Source: Vibrio cholerae ATCC 14035
GTDB taxonomy: Bacteria > Pseudomonadota > Gammaproteobacteria > Enterobacterales > Vibrionaceae
Direction: 5' to 3'
Length of the DNA stretch: 32,000 bases
Assembly: GCF_000621645.1 (NCBI RefSeq)
Contig: NZ_JHXR01000004.1
Location: 60,001 to 92,000, forward strand
The first letter of the stretch is position 1; the number at the start of each line of letters is the position of its first letter. The position numbers and the translations under genes were made by a program. This document shows positions 3,823 through 19,776 of the stretch, piece after piece. Under the pieces are notes generated by a model that saw nothing but the letters and a program-made list of their open reading frames with translations, was not told where the DNA came from and ran no database searches.

Positions 3823-3943
3823 AGCTTGCGAGAGATACGTGTAAAAAGCGCAAGTTATCAGGCTTTATTCAGAACGTCATGGTGGGTGATGGAAAAGTGT
3901 GCGCGCGACATCTTTAGTAAGAGGTGGACTAAGAGAGCTAGTA

Positions 3944-9845: not shown

Positions 9846-9973
9846 TATACCCTTCCTACTTGAAGTTGCAGCGGTGTTGGCTACGTTCGTTCACCCCAAT
9901 CACATAGTTTGCCTATGCTCATGGGGATTCACTTACTTGCCGCCTACCTGCAACTCCAAGTTGTTTGGGTATA
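9846..9973 (+). repeat. ERIC/IRU-type repeat, full length (128 bp)
   Basis: Terminal inverted repeats are tatacccttcctacttgaagttgcag and ctgcaactccaagttgtttgggtata. The core CGTTCACCCCAATCAC...CATGGGGATTCACTTACTTGCCGCC resembles the enterobacterial ERIC core CGCTCACCCCAGTCAC...CCTGGGGATTCACTCACTTGCCGCC. It starts 2 nt after the msrB stop codon. Confidence 0.85.
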
Positions 9974-9978
9974 AGCTC

Positions 9979-10296: not shown

Positions 10297-10454
10297 TTGG
10301 ATGCCGAGACTAATGTCAGACGCGGCGGCAAGTCGTTTGCGCTGAGAGTGTGGTGTAGTAGGCAAAATAAGTGAAGGCTTTTGCTTTGTTGTTCAGAGCG
10401 AGTAGACTGTGCCGCATTTGTTTTCATGCCTTAAAAAGAAGTAAGGATGCCCGC

Positions 10455-11480
10455 ATGTTAGATCGCTCATTCAGCGCCGAAATCCAACAACGAATCGATC
10501 AAAAAACCAAGCCACTCGGGGCGCTAGGGCAACTTGAGCGCGTCGCGCATCATTTAGCACTCATCCAAAGCCAAAACCAAGATCAAGCGGTAACTCAACT
10601 GGCGATTCATCAGCCGACCGTTTTGGTTTTTGCCGCCGATCACGGCATCGCTGCGCAAGGTGTCAGTATTGCGCCAAGCGCAGTGACTGAGCAAATGGTG
10701 CAAAACTTTCTCGCGGGCGGCGCGGCCATCAACTGTTTTTGTCGTACTGAACACGCCGCGATGCGGGTGATTGACTGCGGTATTTTGCGAGCTCAGCCCG
10801 CTCACGCGGATTTGATTGAGCAGCGTCTCGGTGCGGGCACGCATAATTTGGCCGAGCAAGCCGCCATGTCTTCAGAGCAGGTGCAAGAGGGAATCGCACT
10901 TGGCAAGGCGTTGATTCATCGTGAAGTTGAGTCGGGCTGTAATCTATTGATGTTTGGTGAGATGGGCATTGGCAATACCAGCAGTGCAGCAGCAATCTTG
11001 GCGGCACTCTCCGGCTTGCCGATTGAAGTGTGTGTTGGACGTGGCACCGGCATTACGGATGAGCAGTACCAACGTAAACGAGCGTTGGTTACCCAAGGTG
11101 TTGAGCGCTGTTTAGGCGCTGCGCCACAAGATGTCTTGCAGCAAGTTGGCGGGTTTGAAATTGTCCAAATGGTCGGGGCATTTATGGGGGCATACGAAAA
11201 GCAAACCCCAGTGCTGGTGGACGGTTTTATTGTGACGGTTGCCGCTTATGTTGCGACCTTAATCGAGCCAAATGTACGAGACTTTTTGCTGTTTGCCCAC
11301 TGCTCACAAGAAACGGGGCACCGCGCAGTATTAGAAATGCTGGCCGCAGAGCCACTGTTGGATTTAGGTTTACGTTTAGGTGAAGGTACCGGAGCTGTGT
11401 TGGCGCTGGGTCTTGTTCGTGCTGCAGTGGAGTTTTACAACCACATGGCCAGTTTTGCTGATGCAGGAGTCACAGTGTAA
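10455..11480 (+). CDS. cobT: Nicotinate-nucleotide--dimethylbenzimidazole phosphoribosyltransferase
   Basis: Motifs [23 protein letters not shown] and LGEGTGA. The ATG at 10455 (AAGGA 7 nt upstream) is preferred over the GTG at 10371. Confidence 0.9.
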
Positions 11481-12265
11481 TGGCGGCCATTTTACGTTAT
11501 CAACTGGAGCTGTTTTTGCTGGCCGTGAGCTTCTTCTCCCGCATTCCTGTGCCGGTGAGTTTGCCTTATAGCAGTGAGCGAATGAATCAAGCTGGGCGCT
11601 ATTTTGCTCTGGTTGGACTCCTGCTCGGGGCGATTTGCGCTTTGGTTTATTCGCTCGCGACGCAGCTTTTTTCTACCAACATCAGCGTGTTTTTGACCAT
11701 GGTGTTGAGCTTGTTATTGACCGGTGCCTTTCATGAAGACGGCTTAGCGGATATGGCTGACGGTGTGGGCGGTGGTATGACGGCTGAGCGACGTCTAGAG
11801 ATCATGAAAGACAGCCGCATTGGCACTTATGGCTCTAGCGCTTTGATTATGGTTTTGCTGGGTAAATATTTGCTACTCACCGAATTGGCCGATCTTACTT
11901 CACTGGTTCCTGTTTGGTTACTGGCTTATACCCTAAGCCGCGCGGTGGCGGCGTCTTTGATTCGTAATACGCCTTATGTCTCCGATACCGACAGCAGTAA
12001 AAGTAAGCCGCTGGCGCAGCAGCTGTCGGGTACGGATGTGGCCGTGTTATCCCTTACCGCCTTAGCGACACTGCTTTACTTCTCATGGCAGTTTATTGGA
12101 GTGATGATCGCCGCCAGCTTGATTTTCAGACAGATTTTCCGCCAATGGCTTATCAGACGTTTGGGTGGCTTTACTGGCGATTGCCTTGGCGCCGCACAGC
12201 AGTTGATGGAAATTCTGATCTATCTGATCTTGCTTGCTTTTTTACAGCATGAAGTGATGATTTAG
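11480..12265 (+). CDS. cobS: Adenosylcobinamide-GDP ribazoletransferase (cobalamin synthase)
   Basis: Polytopic membrane protein with the [12 protein letters not shown] motif. Its ATG overlaps the cobT stop (TAATG). Confidence 0.9.
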
Positions 12266-12273
12266 GGGGCAAA

Positions 12274-12813
12274 GTGACGGTTCATTTCGTTTTAGGTGGT
12301 GCCCGTAGTGGTAAATCGAGTTACGCAGAGTTACTCGCCAAACAAACTGCACAAGCTTTGGGGGCGACCTTGCATTATGTGGCGACCGCCACGGCCTTAG
12401 ATGATGAGATGCGCGAGCGGATTGCTCATCATCAAGCCCGACGAACCGCAGAGTGGAATGAACATGAAGTGCCGCTGGCTTTGGCTGAGGCGTTAACTCG
12501 CTTTCAACGCCAAGATTTGGTGTTAGTCGATTGCCTCACGTTATGGCTCAATAATCTGCTTTTTGAACACGAAGCCGCGCTCTGTGCAGCGCGGATTGAG
12601 CAGCATGTCGATTCGCTGTTGGCGGCATTGGCTCAAACCCAAGCTCACATTATTTTGGTCAGCAATGAAGTGGGTATGGGAGTCGTACCTATGGGCGAAT
12701 TGACTCGCATGTTTGTTGACCACGCGGGATGGATGAACCAGAAAATCGCGGCATTGGCCGATTCGGTAACGTTTGTCGTGGCGGGTCTGCCACAGCGTTT
12801 AAAAGGCGAGTAG
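12274..12813 (+). CDS. cobU: Bifunctional adenosylcobinamide kinase / adenosylcobinamide-phosphate guanylyltransferase
   Basis: 179 aa with the P-loop GGARSGKSSYAE and an LVSNEVGMG motif. It starts at a GTG 8 nt after cobS. Confidence 0.9.
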   Translation: MTVHFVLGGARSGKSSYAELLAKQTAQALGATLHYVATATALDDEMRERIAHHQARRTAEWNEHEVPLALAEALTRFQRQDLVLVDCLTLWLNNLLFEHEAALCAARIEQHVDSLLAALAQTQAHIILVSNEVGMGVVPMGELTRMFVDHAGWMNQKIAALADSVTFVVAGLPQRLKGE

Positions 12814-12819
12814 CAAGGC

Positions 12820-13422
12820 ATGATCCGAATTTGGTTACTGCGTCACGGCAAAACACAAGGCCCTGCAGCCCTGAATGGTATAACGGATGTCGCGGTGAAG
12901 CCGAGCGTGCAGCAAGCGATAGCCAGCCAATTGAGCACTTTGCCGTTTACTCGTGTGATAAGCTCCCCCTTACGTCGCTGCGCCGATCTGGCGCGATTGC
13001 TCCAATCAGCTCGTCCGCACGTTATGCTCGATTTCGACCCGCAGCTCCAAGAGCTTAACTTTGGTGAGTTGGATGGGCAAAGTTTTGCCGACTTGGAGAC
13101 TCAATGGCCAATATTGGATGCCTTTTGGCAAGACCCCGCAAAGAACACACTGCCACAAGCTGAACCTCTCGCTATGGCCTATCAAAGAGTGAGTCAAGCT
13201 TGGCAACAATGGTTACCTAAGCTTGAGAGCGATACGCTTATCCTCTGCCATGCAGGAACCATACGTTTGATTTTGGCACACGTATTGGGTGTCGATTGGC
13301 GCAACCCACACTGGCATACTCGGTTAACCATTCCTCATCAATCGGTGACAGAGCTTGTCCTTTATCCCGGTGAGCCACCGATAGTGAGCGTGACCAGCAT
13401 CGGAAATGCGCTTTGCCGTTAG
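12820..13422 (+). CDS. cobC: Histidine phosphatase family protein, probable alpha-ribazole-5'-phosphate phosphatase
   Basis: Contains the LLRHGKT catalytic motif and a C-terminal CHAGTIR motif. It sits directly after cobTSU. The functional assignment rests on context. Confidence 0.7.
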   Translation: MIRIWLLRHGKTQGPAALNGITDVAVKPSVQQAIASQLSTLPFTRVISSPLRRCADLARLLQSARPHVMLDFDPQLQELNFGELDGQSFADLETQWPILDAFWQDPAKNTLPQAEPLAMAYQRVSQAWQQWLPKLESDTLILCHAGTIRLILAHVLGVDWRNPHWHTRLTIPHQSVTELVLYPGEPPIVSVTSIGNALCR

Positions 13423-13510
13423 CCCATAAAGCGAATTGAATATGGAGCATCTCATTGAATTAGTGGTAGAATCCGCGCCTATATCGTCGTCTGGCTGGGA
13501 ATAAAAAGAT

Positions 13511-13627
13511 CTATTCCTTGATACTTGAAGCTGCAGCGGTGTTGGCTATATTCGCTCACCCCAATCACTGAGTATTTCTATGATGGGGGATCACTCTCCA
13601 CCTGCAACTCCAAGTCGTTTGGGTAGA
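13511..13627 (+). repeat. ERIC/IRU-type repeat (about 117 bp)
   Basis: ctattccttgatacttgaagctgcagcggtgttggctat...cgctcaccccaatcac...gggggatcac...ctgcaactccaagtcgtttgggtagag aligns with the 9846 copy along its whole length. Confidence 0.85.
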
Positions 13628-13737
13628 GTGCCGTTAACGACCACGGATATTGAATGGGTGATGATAAGTGCGATCATCTTGGCATAAATTGTTCGTACAA
13701 TTTCTTAACATACCGCTGTGCAATAAAGGAGTAGCGC

Positions 13738-14766
13738 ATGACGAAGTCTCTCTTCCGCCAATCTTTTCTTTTCGACAGCTTAGATCTTGACCATCCCATG
13801 GTCGCGCAAACCGTACGTACAGAGCAGGGTGTGACCTTAAAGCTGCATCAACGTGGCGTGTTGGAAGTGATCCCAGCTCAAACGGACGCGGCGACAAAAA
13901 ATATGGTGATCTCCTGTGGGGTACATGGTGATGAAACCGCACCTATGGAACTGCTGGATAAATGGATTGACGATATCGTCAGCGGATTTCAACCCGTTGC
14001 TGAGCGCTGCTTATTTATTCTGGCGCACCCGCAAGCCACGGTGCGCCATGTCCGTTTTATTGAGCAGAATCTCAACCGCTTATTTGATGATAAGCCCCAC
14101 ACTCCGAGCACTGAGCTGGCGATTGCCGATAACCTCAAAGTTCTGCTTAAACAGTTTTTTGCTAACACGGACGAGCACTCGCGTTGGCACCTAGATTTGC
14201 ACTGTGCCATTCGTGGCTCGAAACACTATTCGTTTGCAGTAAGCCCGAAAGCGCGTCATCCGGTGCGCAGCCGTAGCCTGATGCAATTTATCGAGCAAGC
14301 CCATATTGAAGCCGTGATGCTATCGAATGCGCCTTCCAGTACGTTTAGTTGGTATTCAGCCGAGCATTATGCTGCGCAAGCCTTAACCTTAGAGCTTGGT
14401 CAAGTGGCACGCTTAGGTGAAAATCTATTAGACCGTCTGCTGGCCTTTGATCTGGCGATGCGAGATCTCATCTCTCGCCATAAACCCGAGCACTTACCGA
14501 GAAAATCGGTGATGTACCGAGTCAGTCGCACCATAGTGCGTCTGCATGATGATTTTGATTTTCGCTTCAGTGACGACGTGGAAAACTTCACCGCCTTTAT
14601 GCATGGGGAAGTGTTTGGTCACGATGGTGATAAGCCTTTAATGGCGAAAAATGAAGGGGAAGCGATTGTTTTCCCGAACCGCAAAGTGGCCATTGGCCAG
14701 CGTGCTGCCTTGATGGTGTGTAAGGTGAACACGCGCTATGAAGATGACCAATTGGTGTACGACTGA
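13738..14766 (+). CDS. astE: Succinylglutamate desuccinylase / aspartoacylase family protein (AstE-like)
   Basis: 342 aa with the metal-site motif GVHGDETAP and a later DLHCAIR motif. The AAAGGAG SD lies 6 nt upstream of the ATG. Confidence 0.8.
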   Translation: MTKSLFRQSFLFDSLDLDHPMVAQTVRTEQGVTLKLHQRGVLEVIPAQTDAATKNMVISCGVHGDETAPMELLDKWIDDIVSGFQPVAERCLFILAHPQATVRHVRFIEQNLNRLFDDKPHTPSTELAIADNLKVLLKQFFANTDEHSRWHLDLHCAIRGSKHYSFAVSPKARHPVRSRSLMQFIEQAHIEAVMLSNAPSSTFSWYSAEHYAAQALTLELGQVARLGENLLDRLLAFDLAMRDLISRHKPEHLPRKSVMYRVSRTIVRLHDDFDFRFSDDVENFTAFMHGEVFGHDGDKPLMAKNEGEAIVFPNRKVAIGQRAALMVCKVNTRYEDDQLVYD

Positions 14767-14798
14767 TCTTGCTTGGTCATGATCTCCTTTCTATTTAA

Positions 14799-14832
14799 AT
14801 GGCTTAACGGTAAGGTTAGGCCATTCTTTTTT
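14799..14832 (+). terminator. Rho-independent terminator-like hairpin after astE, ending 3 nt before the btuC ATG
   Basis: atggcttaac-ggtaag-gttaggccat forms a 10-bp stem with one G-U pair. It is followed by TCTTTTTT (14825-14832). Confidence 0.6.
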
Positions 14833-14834
14833 CT

Positions 14835-15842
14835 ATGAACGACAAGATGGATTTTCATCGACTGCTTCAACATAAACAGCAACGCTGGCAGCGCAGCAGT
14901 TATCTGCTGGTCGGGCTGTTTTTGAGTGTGTGTGTCCTTTATTTGTTGGTGGGAGAGCTGTGGCTATCTCCTTTTTCCGCTTGGTCTTCTCTCGAACAGC
15001 AGTTGGTATGGGAACTGCGTTTGCCAAGATTACTGGCTGCGGCGGTGATTGGGGCTTCTCTGGCCGTGGCGGGAGCCACCTTACAAGTGTTGCTAGGCAA
15101 TGTGCTTGCTGAGCCGGGCGTGGTGGGGGTATCGGGTGGTGCAAGCGTGGCGATGGTGATTCTGCTGCTGTTTTTCCCGAGTTTAAATTCCCCTGTGGCT
15201 TTTATGGCGGCCGCGGTATTGGGCGCGCTGTTGTTTACATTGCTCTTGGTGGTGATGGCTCGTAAGTTACGCCTGACCACCGCAAGGCTATTACTGATCG
15301 GGGTCGCATTGGGGATTTTGTCTGGCGCGGTAGTCACTTGGGCTTTCTATTTCAGTGATGACCTTGGTTTGCGTCAACTGATGTACTGGTTAATGGGCAG
15401 TGTCGCAGGCGTCAGTTGGTATCAACATCTCCTCTCTTTGGTGGCGGTGCCTGTCGTGATTTGGCTTGTCTTGCAAGGTGGTGTTCTGGATAAGCTGATG
15501 CTTGGTGAAGGGCATGCCAAACAGTTAGGGGTCGATATTCATCGTGTTCGCTGGCGGCTCATTCTCGCTATCGCATTACTGGTCGGGGCTTCCGTCGCAC
15601 TAGGGGGAGTGATCGGTTTTGTTGGGTTAGTGGTTCCTCATTTGCTGCGTTTAACGCTAGGCTCGGAAAATCGTCTATTGCTGCCACTTTCTGCTCTGTG
15701 CGGCGCTTTATTACTGGTGAGTGCGGATCTGATTGCGCGTTTGGCGCTGGGCAGCGGCGAATTGCCATTGGGGGTAGTCACCACCACTCTGGGCGCGCCC
15801 ATTTTTATCTGGATGTTGGTGAGAAACCATGATTCGTGTTAA
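14835..15842 (+). CDS. btuC: Vitamin B12 ABC transporter permease
   Basis: FecCD-family permease resembling E. coli BtuC ([38 protein letters not shown]). The start is uncertain between 14835 and 14847, and neither has a good SD. Confidence 0.88.
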
Positions 15843-16584
15843 CAGCTTACAGGTGGATTCTCGTCTGCTGCCGTTGTCATTACAGGCTAACGCTGGCGAA
15901 GTTTGGCATGTGATTGGCCCCAACGGCTGTGGCAAAAGCACCTTGCTTGCCGCTTTAGCGGGGATGATCCCTTTCTCTGGATCTGTGCAGGTTGGTGGCT
16001 TAAACGTGAGTCAAGCAAGCTTATCTGAACTCGCCCGCCATCGCGCTTATCTGGCACAAAATGATAAACCCAGCTTTCAACTGCACGTTTTCCAATATTT
16101 GGCGCTGTCGGTTCCTGCGAACGTAGCCCTAGAACGCTCGGAAGTGGCCAGCGAAATCGATCAGATCAGCCGTTTACTCAATATTGATGACAAACTACAC
16201 CGTTCGATTCACCAGCTTTCTGGTGGTGAATGGCAGCGTGTGCGTCTAGCCGGAAGTTGTCTACAGGTCTCACCGGTTTTGAATCCTTCTGCGCGTTTAC
16301 TGATTTGGGATGAGCCAGCGGCACCCTTGGATATTGCGCAAGAAAGCCTGTTGTATCGTCTGATTGAGCGTATGGCAGGGCAGGGATTAACGGTGATCAT
16401 GGCCAATCATGACTTGAACCGCACTTTGCGTCACGCTGATCAAGTGTTACTGCTCAGTCGTGGCGTTCTATACCGTGCTGGAAGTGCGAAAGAGGTACTG
16501 ACTCAAGAAGTGCTGCAATCCGTGTTTGGCACGTCAATTCGCCGAGTGGAACTGGAAGGGCATCCTCACTTGCTGTTCGATTGA
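15829..16584 (+). CDS. btuD: Vitamin B12 ABC transporter ATP-binding protein
   Basis: Walker [10 protein letters not shown], signature LSGGEWQRV and Walker B LLIWDEP are present. It overlaps btuC by 14 nt. Confidence 0.9.
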
Positions 16585-16630
16585 GCCTAAGACGCCAGCA
16601 TCTTATCAGGTGTTGCGTTGACCAATCATG

Positions 16631-16657
16631 GCGCATGGAGCACTGTTTTAGCGCATG
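16631..16657 (+). promoter_or_regulatory. Putative upstream activator sequence for the sigma-54 promoter
   Basis: GCGCATG is repeated exactly 20 bp apart (16631-16637 and 16651-16657). The repeats bracket a GCAC-N7-GCGC dyad (16640-16654). The element lies about 110-136 bp upstream of the predicted TSS. Confidence 0.35.
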
Positions 16658-16701
16658 TTGCTGGAAGAATAGGCGAGAAAGTTTTTTAGTATTTGTTTAT
16701 T

Positions 16702-16714
16702 TATCAATGATTTG
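16702..16714 (+). promoter_or_regulatory. IHF binding site
   Basis: TATCAATGATTTG matches the WATCAANNNNTTR consensus at every defined position. An A/T-rich tract precedes it, and it sits between the putative UAS and the -24/-12 element. Confidence 0.45.
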
Positions 16715-16740
16715 TGTTTTTTAACGCAAGGAAAAAATAT

Positions 16741-16756
16741 TGGCACACAATTCGCA
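16741..16756 (+). promoter_or_regulatory. Sigma-54 (RpoN) -24/-12 promoter
   Basis: TGGCAC-acaat-TCGCA compares with the consensus TGGCAC-N5-TTGCW. The GG and GC dinucleotides are 12 nt apart, as required, with one mismatch. Confidence 0.7.
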
Positions 16757-16766
16757 ATACTAGATT

Positions 16767-16926
16767 TGATACATTCTCGTTCTTGTTAGGCTCATCACTC
16801 TTCGGCAGATCCCTTGGCACTCTCTCCTGAATGGTGCCTTGGTATAAGAGTATTGAGTTTGTGCTGAACTGATTGGCCCCAATCAGACGCAGTATGCCAC
16901 CTTAGTGACTAAGGTGGCCTTTTTTT
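16767..16926 (+). ncRNA. Predicted sigma-54-dependent small RNA (about 160 nt), unnamed
   Basis: The transcript is bounded by the sigma-54 promoter (TSS estimated at 16766-16769) and the terminator at 16896-16926. The longest ORF is 13 codons with no SD. Internal hairpins are GGCAC/GTGCC, presenting the CU-rich loop tctctcctgaatg, and ctgatt-ggcccc-aatcag. Confidence 0.55.
16896..16926 (+). terminator. Strong Rho-independent terminator
   Basis: gccaccttag-tga-ctaaggtggc forms a perfect 10-bp stem followed by C and T7. Only the plus-strand orientation has a U-tract. Confidence 0.85.
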
Positions 16927-16968
16927 ATCTGGATACTCGATATCTTGCCAAGGTAAAGCAGAGGCTGA

Positions 16969-17544
16969 TTACTGAGTGAGTGCTGCGAGGTTAGCAGGGC
17001 GGTAATAAACCGACTTCAGCACTTTGCCCTGACGCACGGTTTTAGACTCAGAGATAAAATCCTCTGCGCATTTGGCAATAATATACTCACCTTGATGAAC
17101 CGCCATTAGCTTGACACCTTGTTCAGCATAGAATTTCTCAGTATCTAAATACTCTTGTTCACTGCGACACACTTTACTCATGTTGGAGCTGTGTACTTCA
17201 TCCCAGCATGAAAGAAAGTCGATATTTAAGTTAGCCGCAACATGCAAAAGTAGGTCAATCAAATAGCTGATCGCTAGATTGTCTTCTACCTTAGCGTGGC
17301 CTAAATGCACCAATCTTCCCATCAACACATAGACGGTATCCACAATCGCATCCGCTTGTTCGGTTTTATTGTCGGCTTGGGCAAGCTCAGTCAGCTCTTC
17401 AATCGCCAAAGAAGTGTGTAAGGTGTCAGCCTGGGAATTTAAGGTCTGTGGTGCAGCGACAGGCAGATCAAAGGTTTGGCGGAATTCACTGATATCACGG
17501 TATAAGTGGTCGAAAATCTCTTGCGTCAGCTTAGTTAATTGCAT
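16969..17544 (-). CDS. All-alpha NTP pyrophosphohydrolase-like protein (MazG/PRA-PH superfamily, COG4696-like)
   Basis: 191 aa with an EExxE...ExxD-type metal motif (LAIEELTELAQA ... EQADAIVDTVYVLMG). The C-terminal VHSSNMSK ... RQGKVLKS pattern is one I associate with this family. The assignment is from memory of the family motifs. Confidence 0.5.
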   Translation of the reverse strand: MQLTKLTQEIFDHLYRDISEFRQTFDLPVAAPQTLNSQADTLHTSLAIEELTELAQADNKTEQADAIVDTVYVLMGRLVHLGHAKVEDNLAISYLIDLLLHVAANLNIDFLSCWDEVHSSNMSKVCRSEQEYLDTEKFYAEQGVKLMAVHQGEYIIAKCAEDFISESKTVRQGKVLKSVYYRPANLAALTQ

Positions 17545-17644
17545 GCTTGCGTTCCGAATGGGGTTTAACAGGAGGGCAAGTGTAACAAAGCTTGTGCAGC
17601 GGGGCTACGTCAGCACATGAATCACAGGATTGAAAAACAAAGTG

Positions 17645-17675
17645 AGCAAAAACAAAAGGCGCAATTAAGCGCCTT
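17645..17675 (-). terminator. Rho-independent terminator after the DUF2750-like gene
   Basis: aaggcgc-aattaa-gcgcctt forms a 7-bp stem. On the minus strand it is followed by TTTTGTTTTTGC. Confidence 0.7.
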
Positions 17676-17722
17676 ATCGGTAGGGAGAACTGAAATACCG
17701 ATTAACCTACATAGGGAATAGG

Positions 17723-18073
17723 TTATAGGTAGAGTTTGGCCAGTTGTGATGGCTCTAATTCTTTACCTTCGAGGTTGGCATTCCAGTTCGTTCCGACCAG
17801 AACACCATCTTCATCAAGAGTGATTAACCAATCTTCTACAAAAACATCCAGCGGGATTTCTACCACTTCAAAGTCAGCCCACTCTTCAACGTTATGAATT
17901 TGCGCATCTTTTTTGGATGACCAGAAAGGCATCACTTCACTTTCTTCAAATTCAGTCGACTCACAAGAGAGCCAACCTTCTTCATTGCGTAAACCCCAAA
18001 CAAGTTGGCTTTCTTGGGTTTCCTGAATAAACAGCGCTAGATTCGCTTCGATATCTGCCGTTAATTTGCTCAT
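17723..18073 (-). CDS. Small acidic cytoplasmic protein, DUF2750-like
   Basis: 116 aa from the ATG at 18073, which I prefer to the track start at 18118. Features I associate with DUF2750 are LVWGLRNEEGW, MPFWSSKKDA and VLVGTNWN. There is no signal peptide. Confidence 0.5.
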   Translation of the reverse strand: MSKLTADIEANLALFIQETQESQLVWGLRNEEGWLSCESTEFEESEVMPFWSSKKDAQIHNVEEWADFEVVEIPLDVFVEDWLITLDEDGVLVGTNWNANLEGKELEPSQLAKLYL

Positions 18074-18165
18074 TTTATTCTCTCGCAGTAGATAATGCCG
18101 TAAGGGTAGCACTTTCATCGAAGAATGCCCATGCTGATCTCTGTCTGCTCATAAAAAGAGTGAGA

Positions 18166-19776
18166 TCACAGTTTAAAGGCCGTCAGTTTTTGGTCGAGTT
18201 GACGCGACAAGTCAGCCAGTTTTTCACTCTCTTCTGCTAAATAAGTGGCCGCTTGCGACATTTCCAGCGCCGCATCATTAATGCCACTTACGTTACGGTT
18301 CATCTCTTCGGCAACGGCACTTTGTTCTTCCGCTGCGGTGGCAATCTGAGTGGCTTTGTCGCTGACGTGCTGAATGTGATTCACAATCAGAGATAAGTCG
18401 CTGCCCGCATTTTCTGCGGTTGCCACGCTGTTAGCCGCCAATGCTTGGCTTTTTTGCATCGCACTGGCTGTGCTTACCGCCAGTTGTTGCAGACGGTTAA
18501 TCATGGTTTGGATTTCATCGGTGGAATGATGAGTTCGGCTGGCTAAATTCCGTACCTCGTCGGCGACCACAGCAAAGCCGCGACCTTGATCGCCCGCTCG
18601 CGCCGCTTCAATCGCCGCATTTAAAGCAAGAAGGTTCGTTTGTTCGGAAATGCCACTGATGACCGAGGTGACTTCGCTAATTTGCATCACCCCTTCTTTG
18701 AGCTTATTCACTTGATCAGTTGCAACGCCCAGTTCAACCGATAAGGCGCGAATGCTGTCTACGCTCGAATGGACGTCCTTATCTCCTAGGTTCGCTTCTT
18801 TGCTAGCATCGAGGGTATCGCGCGCGGTGTCTTCTGCATGGCCTGCCACATCAGCCACGGTCGCGGTCATCTGGTTCATCGCGGTGGCAAGTTGGCTTAA
18901 TTGGTCACGTTGTGAAACCACGGCTTGGCTGGTTTCTTCGGCAGAGGAGGCGATGCGGATCGCCGCTTCCGCGACAGAAGAGGCGGACTGTACGGATTCA
19001 ACCAAGGCATCATGTACGGCGGCAATACTGTTATTGATGCGCTGGGCAACAATACCAAGCTCATCTTTACCCAGCACAGGAATCTGTGCGGTGAGATCGC
19101 CTTGGGCAACTTTTTTCATCACATCTTTGATGGTATCGAGTGGTTGAATCACCGCACGACTGATCACAACACCCAGACCTATCATAACGAGCGTCACTAT
19201 GAGGGTGGCGAAACCCATTCTCAGGAACTGTTGGTAAACCGCGTGTTCAATATCGTCCAACAACATGCCTGAGCCTAAAATCCATCCCCAAGGCGCAAAG
19301 CCATTGACGAACGAGAGTTTATCGGCAGGGTTGCCTTGTTGATTTTTCCAAGGGTAGATCAACGAGCCTTGTTGACCATTGCGCGCTAAGTCGATCATGG
19401 TGAACCAGAATTGACCTTCTGTATCTTTGCCCGGATTCCCCATCTGTTGACCAACCAGATCCTGACGGATCGGGTGTACCACTGTGTAGCGTGATTCATC
19501 AATCACGAACATATAGTTGTTGCCATCAAATCGTAGCGCGTTAATCAGGGCTTTGGCCTGTTCTTGAGCTTGTTCTTTGGGTAGGGTTTGGTTGAGATAA
19601 GCCACCTGAGATAGGGTGCTTTGAATCACTGCTTTCAAACGTGCTTCACGCTCAGCAACCAAGTTTTCTTTTAGGGCATTGGCAGAGATAAAGAGCAGGC
19701 TCAAAAATCCAACAATACCGACGATGACAATAGCGGCCAGTTTATAACTGACCTTGATATTCTCTAGCTTCAACAT
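18166..19776 (-). CDS. Methyl-accepting chemotaxis protein with a periplasmic Cache-type sensor and HAMP domain
   Basis: It has an N-terminal TM segment, then a Cache-like region ([15 protein letters not shown] ... [16 protein letters not shown]), a second TM segment and HAMP. The conserved signalling hairpin [35 protein letters not shown] is present. AGGTGG SD. Confidence 0.9.

Follow-up and report, generated by a model that had tools for sequence, protein, structure and literature searches.

Vcr051, a catalogued small RNA encoded downstream of btuD in Vibrio cholerae, has a conserved sigma-54-type promoter and NtrC-type upstream sites

Introduction

The closest described counterparts of the locus considered here are small RNAs (sRNAs) transcribed from sigma-54 promoters. 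Qrr1-4, quorum-sensing RNAs of Vibrio that depend on LuxO, are intergenic primary sRNAs with a sigma-54 promoter, a site for an NtrC-family protein ~100-150 bp upstream, Hfq association and an intrinsic terminator. NrsZ of Pseudomonas aeruginosa has an orphan sigma-54 promoter between tail-to-tail genes, is processed and acts post-transcriptionally, and GlnZ of the Enterobacteriaceae depends on the NtrC/sigma-54 enhancer of glnAp2 and pairs with its targets in an Hfq-dependent manner. GlmY, also of the Enterobacteriaceae, is controlled by sigma-54, GlrR and integration host factor (IHF), with activator sites, an IHF site and a -24/-12 element driving the sRNA; the GlrR boxes read TGTC-N10-GACA and appear to be lacking at the locus considered here, and GlmY works by sequestering a protein, not through a 5' seed. 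Here we analyze a 32,000-nucleotide stretch of Vibrio cholerae ATCC 14035 (contig NZ_JHXR01000004.1, positions 60,001 to 92,000; hereafter "the window"), in which a first-pass annotation made from the letters alone had proposed an orphan sigma-54 promoter driving a non-coding, terminated transcript downstream of btuD. The sRNA catalogue of V. cholerae comprises more than 100 candidates, most of them without a known signal. The proposed RNA is almost certainly one of these, Vcr051, and comparison across the genus indicates that its gene very probably depends on sigma-54.

Results

The first-pass proposal coincides with a published transcript, since a primary sRNA, Vcr051, is annotated exactly at this position, and there is hardly any room for doubt that the flagged RNA is this real sRNA between VC1245 (btuD) and VC1246. 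Supplementary file 2B of Hoyos et al. (2020, PMC7398697) places Vcr051 at 1317848-1318006 of N16961 chromosome 1, on the sense strand, with a length of 158 nt and in class IGR (intergenic region). The same study reports four internal RNase E sites in Vcr051, which is not among its 3' untranslated region (3'-UTR) sRNAs whose 5' end is an RNase E cleavage site. In an Hfq RIL-seq (ligation-based sequencing of interacting RNAs) dataset, Vcr051 is RNA2 of a chimera with the VC1244 coding sequence (row VC1244 CDS-Vcr051; 103 chimeras, p = 2e-219), with a read span of 1317841-1318007 on the plus strand (Huber et al., 2022, PMC9732341). An offset of ~1,301,080, set by equating the 3' end with T16926 and derived from coordinates rather than from the N16961 sequence itself, takes the annotated 5' end to G16768, one base from the start predicted at ~16767, and the 3' end to the T-run; it also puts the RIL-seq ranges of VC1244, VC1247 and VC1248 on btuC, a DUF2750 open reading frame (ORF) and a chemoreceptor (MCP) gene. 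The transcript, its ends, its association with Hfq and its cleavage by RNase E are all taken here from these published tables.

Catalogue entry and flagged RNA share position, strand, ends and class, and there is physically no difference between them; because Vcr051 is already catalogued, the existence of the RNA is not novel, a possibility that the first-pass annotation had itself left room for. Neither a promoter type nor a regulator is stated in the catalogue entries that we read, and these are likewise silent on conservation and function. A literature search found no text mention of Vcr051, Vcr51 or its seed sequence, no paper naming a regulator or function for it, and no NtrC- or RpoN-dependent Vibrio sRNA other than Qrr. 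Rfam likewise returned no relevant match, either for the window at the gathering score or for 16500-17050 and one short-form homologue at E <= 10, where every hit scored well under the threshold. As far as these sources can be searched, there is no earlier description of the promoter class or the NtrC-type enhancer, nor of the seed or of a family that spans the genus.

A btuD-anchored scan with one genome per species yielded 80 Vibrionaceae loci, 25 of which carry the block GATACATTCTCGTTCTTGTTAGGCT slightly more than 100 nt 3' of btuD. The species with the sRNA include V. metoecus, V. furnissii, V. anguillarum, V. ordalii, V. aestuarianus, V. metschnikovii, V. ruber, V. coralliilyticus and V. 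plantisponsor. Thirteen extra copies came from an exact 20-mer scan of metagenomes, in the context btuD-RNA-convergent VC1246 homologue wherever flanks were present, and a covariance model built from 15 short forms (R1) detects 26 of the 80 species loci as well as the window. The comparative counts given below rest on 36-37 distinct homologues. All 38 occurrences lie immediately 3' of btuD and most face a VC1246 homologue, which is not adjacent in seven sRNA-bearing loci; the gene is single-copy and present in about one third of the sampled Vibrio species. Where the core is missing and the spacer between btuD and VC1246 is long, neither a variant sRNA nor a sigma-54 site was found, and another minus-strand gene occupies the space.

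The conservation check suggested by the first-pass annotation gave a clear outcome: across ~36 homologues the -24/-12 element, the IHF-like site and the upstream dyads keep their positions while neighboring bases vary. In the promoter, T-27, G-26, G-25, C-24 and A-23, T-16, and G-14 and C-13 are identical in 34-36 of 36 homologues; positions -22 to -17 and -15 vary freely. The -24 element begins 27 nt before an invariant +1 G in 36 of 37 cases, and in the window the C of the -12 GC lies 13 nt 5' of G16768, in agreement with the 12-13 nt expected of sigma-54 promoters. Such a base pattern is the footprint expected of the bases contacted by sigma-54. Given this strong phylogenetic footprint, and because no sigma-70-like promoter was found in 16300-17700, transcription of Vcr051 is very probably sigma-54-dependent. 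Within V. cholerae, one assembly differs by 10 intergenic single-nucleotide polymorphisms, none of which falls in the activator half-sites or dyads, the -24/-12 element or the seed.

The IHF-like site is also retained: 21 of 37 homologues have its strict form WATCAANNNNTTR and 31 of 37 a relaxed one, and its position is almost without exception -55/-56. The window's copy lies ~10 bp further upstream than in the homologues: V. cholerae has ~10 extra bp (the TTTAACGCAAGG region, within 16715-16740) between the IHF-like site and the -24 element, which moves the site from -56 to -66. This shift amounts to one helical turn and agrees with the 10-11-bp classes of activator-site distance described next.

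Upstream of the promoter, the pattern (TT)TGGTGCA-N3-WGCAC-N7-G-N-[G/T]-C-A is present in 36 of 37 homologues. Its WGCAC is near-invariant, and in 35 of 36 the G..CA is separated from it by an unvarying N7; written genus-wide as TTTGGTGCA-N3-WGCAC-N7-GNNCA, the element has as its left flank, TTTGGTGCA, a full 7-nt NtrC half-site. We read it as two adjacent 17-bp NtrC-type dyads (TGCAC-N7-GTGCA) with centers 20 bp apart, as are the centers of sites 1 and 2 in the window, where copies of GCGCATG at 16631-37 and 16651-57 are likewise separated by 20 bp. The last codons of btuD overlap the left half of site 1 in most species, and this half is weak there because it falls inside the end of the gene. 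A full AGCAC left half of site 1 occurs only where the intergenic region is longer, in V. anguillarum, V. ordalii and V. aestuarianus; V. anguillarum has two complete dyads, AGCACAACTGTCGTGCA gtc AGCACACTTTTAGCGCA. The Escherichia coli glnAp2 enhancer, read for reference, comprises TGCACCAACATGGTGCT and AGCACTATATTGGTGCA, and its -24 context, AAAAGTTGGCAC, is also the same. In the window the right half of site 1 reads GGCGCA, versus TGGTGCA in most species. The element lies 124-126, 135-138 or 146-147 nt from the start, and the step between these three distance classes is about one helical turn, which would be expected if the activator must face the promoter. Judged from half-site identity, spacing and position, NtrC is the activator towards which we lean, by a modest measure. 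The first-pass annotation had left the enhancer-binding protein unidentified; the class of activator that it named stands, while the half-sites now point to a particular member of that class.

Every motif named in the first-pass annotation was recovered in the window sequence where it had been placed, and the frequency of such motifs was gauged from expectations computed for the 32-kb window. For the -24/-12 pattern with at most one mismatch, 2.5 occurrences per 32 kb are expected and one was found, and the NtrC-type dyad with at most two mismatches is expected 22.5 times in the window and was found 11 times. Motif evidence from this single sequence is weak, lying at or below chance, and has no weight alone; the significance of the motifs comes from the cross-species comparison and from the published transcript maps.

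The RNA itself is conserved in sequence and structure at both ends. Its first ~20 nt are predicted to be unpaired in single-sequence and consensus folds alike. In most species the RNA is only ~70 nt long and consists of a 20-nt unpaired 5' end, a small hairpin (AGGCU/AGUCU, with one G.U to A-U change), a U-rich linker, a terminator (GCCACCUUG/CAAGGUGGC, in which three pairs show compensatory changes) and a U-tail. The predicted 161-nt RNA of the window folds better than 200 of 200 shuffled sequences (z = -3.9), and the Vcr051 3' end, a 10-bp stem followed by U7, has the U-tail of Hfq-type RNAs (at least six). No ORF is common to the RNAs of the different species. The longest ATG-started ORF inside the V. 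cholerae transcript has 13 codons, just as first reported, and TTG-started frames of 17 and 15 codons are additionally present. With this 5' end, Vcr051 is likely to act in trans by seed base-pairing.

The body of the RNA has been expanded independently at least two times, with seed and terminator fixed in both lineages. In V. cholerae the RNA measures 159 nt and in V. metoecus 134 nt; in both, the loop of hairpin 1 is interrupted by an insertion and there is an extra hairpin, a gain of ~65-90 nt (window 16793-16895), and the V. cholerae insertion is only partly common to V. metoecus. No other copy of it was found, and its reading as a repeat or mobile element was rejected. A second lineage (loci L048, L052, L054, L081, L083, L086, L087 and L091) has a different expansion of ~55 nt that ends in GACTATGGCAGCTTCCGCCACCTAAGG. 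One of these, L054 (JACGDM010000003.1), is titled Vibrio cholerae strain BI-5D; its BtuD shares only 57% identity with that of the window and its sRNA belongs to this second expanded type, and the record is probably mislabelled as to species. The transcript of ~160 nt predicted by the first-pass annotation is thus right for V. cholerae and not as a general length, and the CU-rich loop that it had listed for a conservation test lies in the V. cholerae-specific insertion; what is conserved as the functional module is the 5' end, 25 nt in length.

V. mimicus CAIM 602 (L002, 3757-3830) and a related metagenome-assembled genome (L003, 1073-1140) have naturally lost the activator sites together with the promoter and the seed. 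After btuD, V. mimicus has just the CAATCAGA remnant and the terminator GCCACCTTAG..TAAGGTGGC, while the flanking btuD and VC1246 homologue are 86% and 94% identical to the window's. Retention of this terminator after btuD indicates that the hairpin terminates btuCD. In the window it is the sole plus-strand terminator from btuD to the next gene, and thus the only one for btuCD; on the minus strand the hairpin lacks a T-run. The suggestion that btuCD read-through could yield the same 3' end is consistent with the sequence and fits the terminator-only state of V. mimicus.

The features of the locus are collected in Table 1.

Table 1. Features of the Vcr051 locus and its neighbors in window coordinates (position 1 is the first base of the window).
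Feature	Position	Strand	Description
Vcr051, full-length sRNA	16768-16926	+	159 nt here; published annotation and covariance model matches (16768-16846, 16855-16926)
Vcr051 transcription start	G16768	+	N16961 chromosome 1 position 1317848 by offset; first base of the invariant block
Invariant 5' region, GAUACAUUCUCGUUCUUGUUAGGCU	16768-16792	+	Identical in 33-36 of 36 at each position; proposed seed
Stem-loop 1	16788-16860	+	4-5-bp hairpin in most species; ~60-70-nt insertion with CU-rich loop in V. cholerae
Stem-loop 2, contains CUGAUUGGCCCCAAUCAG	16861-16895	+	V. cholerae and V. metoecus only; CAATCAGA remnant in V. mimicus
Rho-independent terminator	16896-16926	+	10-bp stem (6 G-C), 3-nt loop, hairpin 16896-16918, then C and T7
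Sigma-54-type -24/-12 element, TGGCACacaatTCGCA	16741-16756	+	GG at 16742-43, GC at 16754-55; one mismatch to TGGCAC-N5-TTGCW
IHF-like site, TATCAATGATTTG	16702-16714	+	-66 to -54; fits consensus WATCAANNNNTTR
Upstream activator site 1, TGACCAATCATGGCGCA	16619-16635	+	NtrC-type 17-mer; left half weak, right half strong
Upstream activator site 2, AGCACTGTTTTAGCGCA	16639-16655	+	NtrC-type dyad WGCAC-N7-GNNCA; 2 mismatches
btuC (VC1244)	14835-15842	+	NCBIfam equivalog
btuD (VC1245)	15829-16584	+	Upstream gene; NCBIfam BtuD, E 3.6e-106
VC1246	16969-17544	-	Convergent 191-aa ORF; PRA-PH (MazG-like) domain
VC1247	17723-18118	-	DUF2750 ORF; from RIL-seq coordinates and offset
VC1248	18166-19776		Chemoreceptor (MCP) gene; from RIL-seq coordinates and offset

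Complementarity to the neighboring genes was evaluated for the seed and for the full-length RNA. Against the start region of the VC1246 homologues in 27 species, the seed gave a mean of -11.4 kcal/mol versus -11.6 kcal/mol for shuffled seeds, and against the btuC-btuD mRNA in 34 sequences a mean of -19.2 versus -19.1 kcal/mol. A scan of the 32-kb window with the seed returned unremarkable sites only. With values equal to those of shuffled seeds, action in cis on the neighbors is not supported. In a restricted analysis the btuC site seen in RIL-seq gives an unexceptional -27.6 kcal/mol versus -25.8 +/- 3.5 kcal/mol for other btuCD segments, and duplex prediction for the full-length RNA against btuC is uninformative because long duplexes form everywhere. 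This site (15586-15622) contains GGGGGAGUGAU, which can pair with the V. cholerae-specific segments AUCACUCUU and CACUCUCUC (16793-16828). Read-through from btuCD into the shared terminator could explain same-strand btuC chimeras of such average complementarity.

Further afield in the window, a cobalamin neighborhood (10371-16584) ends at the sRNA gene and comprises cobT (10371-11480), three plus-strand ORFs extending to 13422, a gene of the AstE/aspartoacylase family and btuCD; no cobalamin riboswitch scored above the Rfam threshold in the window. Two full-length matches to the Rfam family V_AS5 (RF02818, Vibrio antisense RNA AS5), at 580-712 and 9850-9974 on the minus strand, reach 128 and 102 bits, where the gathering score is 96. 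On the other side of the sRNA gene, VC1247 is an Hfq RIL-seq partner of Vcr043 (670 chimeras) and VqmR (296 chimeras).

Discussion

We favor, with somewhat better than even confidence, the reading that Vcr051 is a sigma-54-dependent, probably NtrC-activated, Hfq-associated sRNA that acts in trans through a 5' seed. The conservation of the promoter, the IHF-like site, the upstream activator sites, the seed and the RNA structure is observed across the homologues; from it we infer dependence on RpoN, an NtrC activator, a nitrogen signal and the trans-acting seed mechanism. In the proposed sequence of events, RNA polymerase containing sigma-54 would form a closed complex on TGGCAC-N5-TCGCA (16741-56), and a phosphorylated NtrC-type protein, most likely NtrC itself, would assemble on the two dyads of 17 bp each, which span roughly -150 to -113. 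The intervening DNA would be bent by IHF, bound near -60, so that the activator's ATPase could remodel the closed complex. The transcript would then run from G16768 to the hairpin-U7 terminator (16896-16926), the invariant unstructured 5' 20-25 nt may pair with mRNAs in trans, and the 3' U-tail would retain Hfq along with the U-rich linker. The V. cholerae-specific expansion of ~90 nt is cut by RNase E. With NtrC as the most likely activator, the expected response would be to nitrogen limitation.

Several observations weigh against this proposal. Both right half-sites in V. cholerae read GCGCA, not GTGCA, most species have a weak left half in site 1, and the NtrC sites used for reference are those of E. 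coli only. In two loci, L053 (V. profundum, 3855-3870) and L057 (V. sinus, 3863-3878), the -12 element reads TTGT, not TTGC, and the start reads GGTACA or TGTACA instead of GATACA; these two promoters may be weakened. The main text of an RpoN study of V. cholerae by chromatin immunoprecipitation sequencing (ChIP-seq) and RNA-seq contains no mention of VC124x, and our literature search turned up no rpoN, ntrC or nitrogen-limitation expression data for Vcr051. The RNA was catalogued from lysogeny broth (LB) cultures, in which little NtrC activity is to be expected; basal expression would fit the low chimera count, which proves nothing. Moreover, no target of the seed was found in the window, in the VC1246 homologues or in btuC-btuD.

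The alternative that we take most seriously, while judging it fairly unlikely, keeps the sigma-54 promoter and assigns its activation to a bacterial enhancer-binding protein (bEBP) other than NtrC (DctD-type, VC1522-type or other) that reads GTGCA-N3-TGCAC, with a signal other than nitrogen. The best-conserved part of the element is indeed GTGCA-N3-WGCAC, a 13-bp palindrome with the 5-3-5 geometry of a LuxO box and with weaker outer halves, and the comparison of the dyads with E. coli rather than Vibrio NtrC sites leaves this reading some room. No bEBP gene was found among the large window ORFs examined; the activator is thus not encoded nearby in the window, and no local candidate is indicated by the 32 kb. 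Against a different bEBP stand the outer right half, G-N-[G/T]-C-A, whose N7 spacing is exactly maintained in all but one of 36 homologues, the left flank TTTGGTGCA with its full 7-nt NtrC half-site, and the two complete TGCAC-N7-GTGCA dyads of species with longer spacers, which match E. coli glnAp2. That the LuxO-like geometry marks a divergent fifth Qrr under LuxO control is extremely improbable. The layout is the same, in that a sigma-54 promoter with an NtrC-family site near -130 drives a short sRNA of the Hfq type, yet no Qrr family of Rfam matches even at E <= 10 and the seed is unrelated. A LuxO box, TTGCAW3TGCAA, was sought in 16585-16767 and not found within 3 mismatches, and published LuxO ChIP-seq has five peaks, at qrr1-4 and VC1142/43, none of them near 1.3178 Mb. 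The first-pass annotation was right, then, to set this RNA apart from the Qrr group.

Vcr051 might instead be mainly a by-product of the btuCD 3' UTR, made by read-through and RNase E cleavage next to an unproductive or minor sigma-54 site. The lack of a plus-strand terminator between the btuD stop and 16896 would permit this, as would the four RNase E sites within Vcr051, RIL-seq reads whose start precedes the annotated 5' end by ~7 nt, and an only listed partner, btuC, that lies 1.25 kb upstream on the same strand; V. mimicus, moreover, retains the terminator without the sRNA. We nonetheless regard this as improbable: Vcr051 is classed as IGR and is missing from the list of RNase E-generated 3'-UTR sRNAs (PMC7398697), its annotated 5' end is the first invariant base, 13 nt after the -12 GC, and a silent site would give no reason for the purifying selection that acts across the genus on the -24/-12 element, on the IHF site and on the upstream sites with their phasing. 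The IGR class and the selected promoter make an origin from the 3' UTR alone unlikely, and btuCD read-through remains plausible alongside the promoter. Slightly less probable still is an action in cis, in which the RNA would regulate the btuCD mRNA or would serve the convergent PRA-PH-family gene as a terminator or antisense element. Strict synteny (38 of 38 copies immediately 3' of btuD, most opposite a VC1246 homologue) and the Hfq RIL-seq chimeras with the btuC coding sequence speak for it, and VC1246 transcripts could run antisense into the sRNA gene, since the hairpin has no T-run on the minus strand; the seed, however, pairs with the VC1246-homologue start and the btuC-btuD mRNA no better than shuffled seeds in the 27 and 34 sequences, the btuC site is average and pairs only with V. 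cholerae-specific segments, and seven sRNA-bearing loci have no adjacent VC1246 homologue.

The reading of Vcr051 as an NtrC/sigma-54-controlled, seed-bearing sRNA would give it a testable input, namely RpoN and NtrC and hence nitrogen limitation, together with a defined seed and ~36 homologues for target prediction. If true, it would add a nitrogen-stress arm to Vibrio riboregulation, analogous to NrsZ and GlnZ, and a second class of sigma-54-dependent sRNA next to the Qrr RNAs. The locus also illustrates how an sRNA gene evolves, with a ~70-nt core, two independent expansions and a clean deletion in V. mimicus, and with an enhancer that stays in helical phase across insertions and deletions of 10-11 bp. 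The kind of system is well known and the existence of the RNA is not new. We give even weight to the broader claim that Vcr051 founds a new sRNA family spanning about one third of the sampled Vibrio species, being the first Vibrionaceae sRNA with its own NtrC/sigma-54/nitrogen-stress enhancer-dependent promoter and the only sigma-54 primary sRNA of V. cholerae besides Qrr1-4, with an invariant 25-nt seed that would imply a conserved nitrogen-linked regulon.

Set beside the described systems, Vcr051 shares its architecture with several and its sequence with none of those compared here. It has no sequence or covariance-model similarity to Qrr1-4, whose activator box is TTGCA/TGCAA as against GTGCA/TGCAC in Vcr051, and unlike the Qrr genes it is single-copy and always beside btuD in the species that have it. 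GlnZ has similar half-sites and a similar -24 context in its glnAp2 enhancer, but it is unrelated in sequence and is processed from the glnA 3' UTR, whereas Vcr051 has its own promoter and start. The closest functional analogue is NrsZ, which was found by the same logic as that applied here to the Vcr051 promoter. NrsZ has no sequence relationship to Vcr051, is composed of three repeated stem-loops and lies next to ntrC, in contrast to the single 5' seed of Vcr051 and its position next to btuD; its dependence on NtrB/C and RpoN has been demonstrated, whereas for Vcr051 a dependence on NtrC is suggested by the half-sites, spacing and position of its conserved upstream element.

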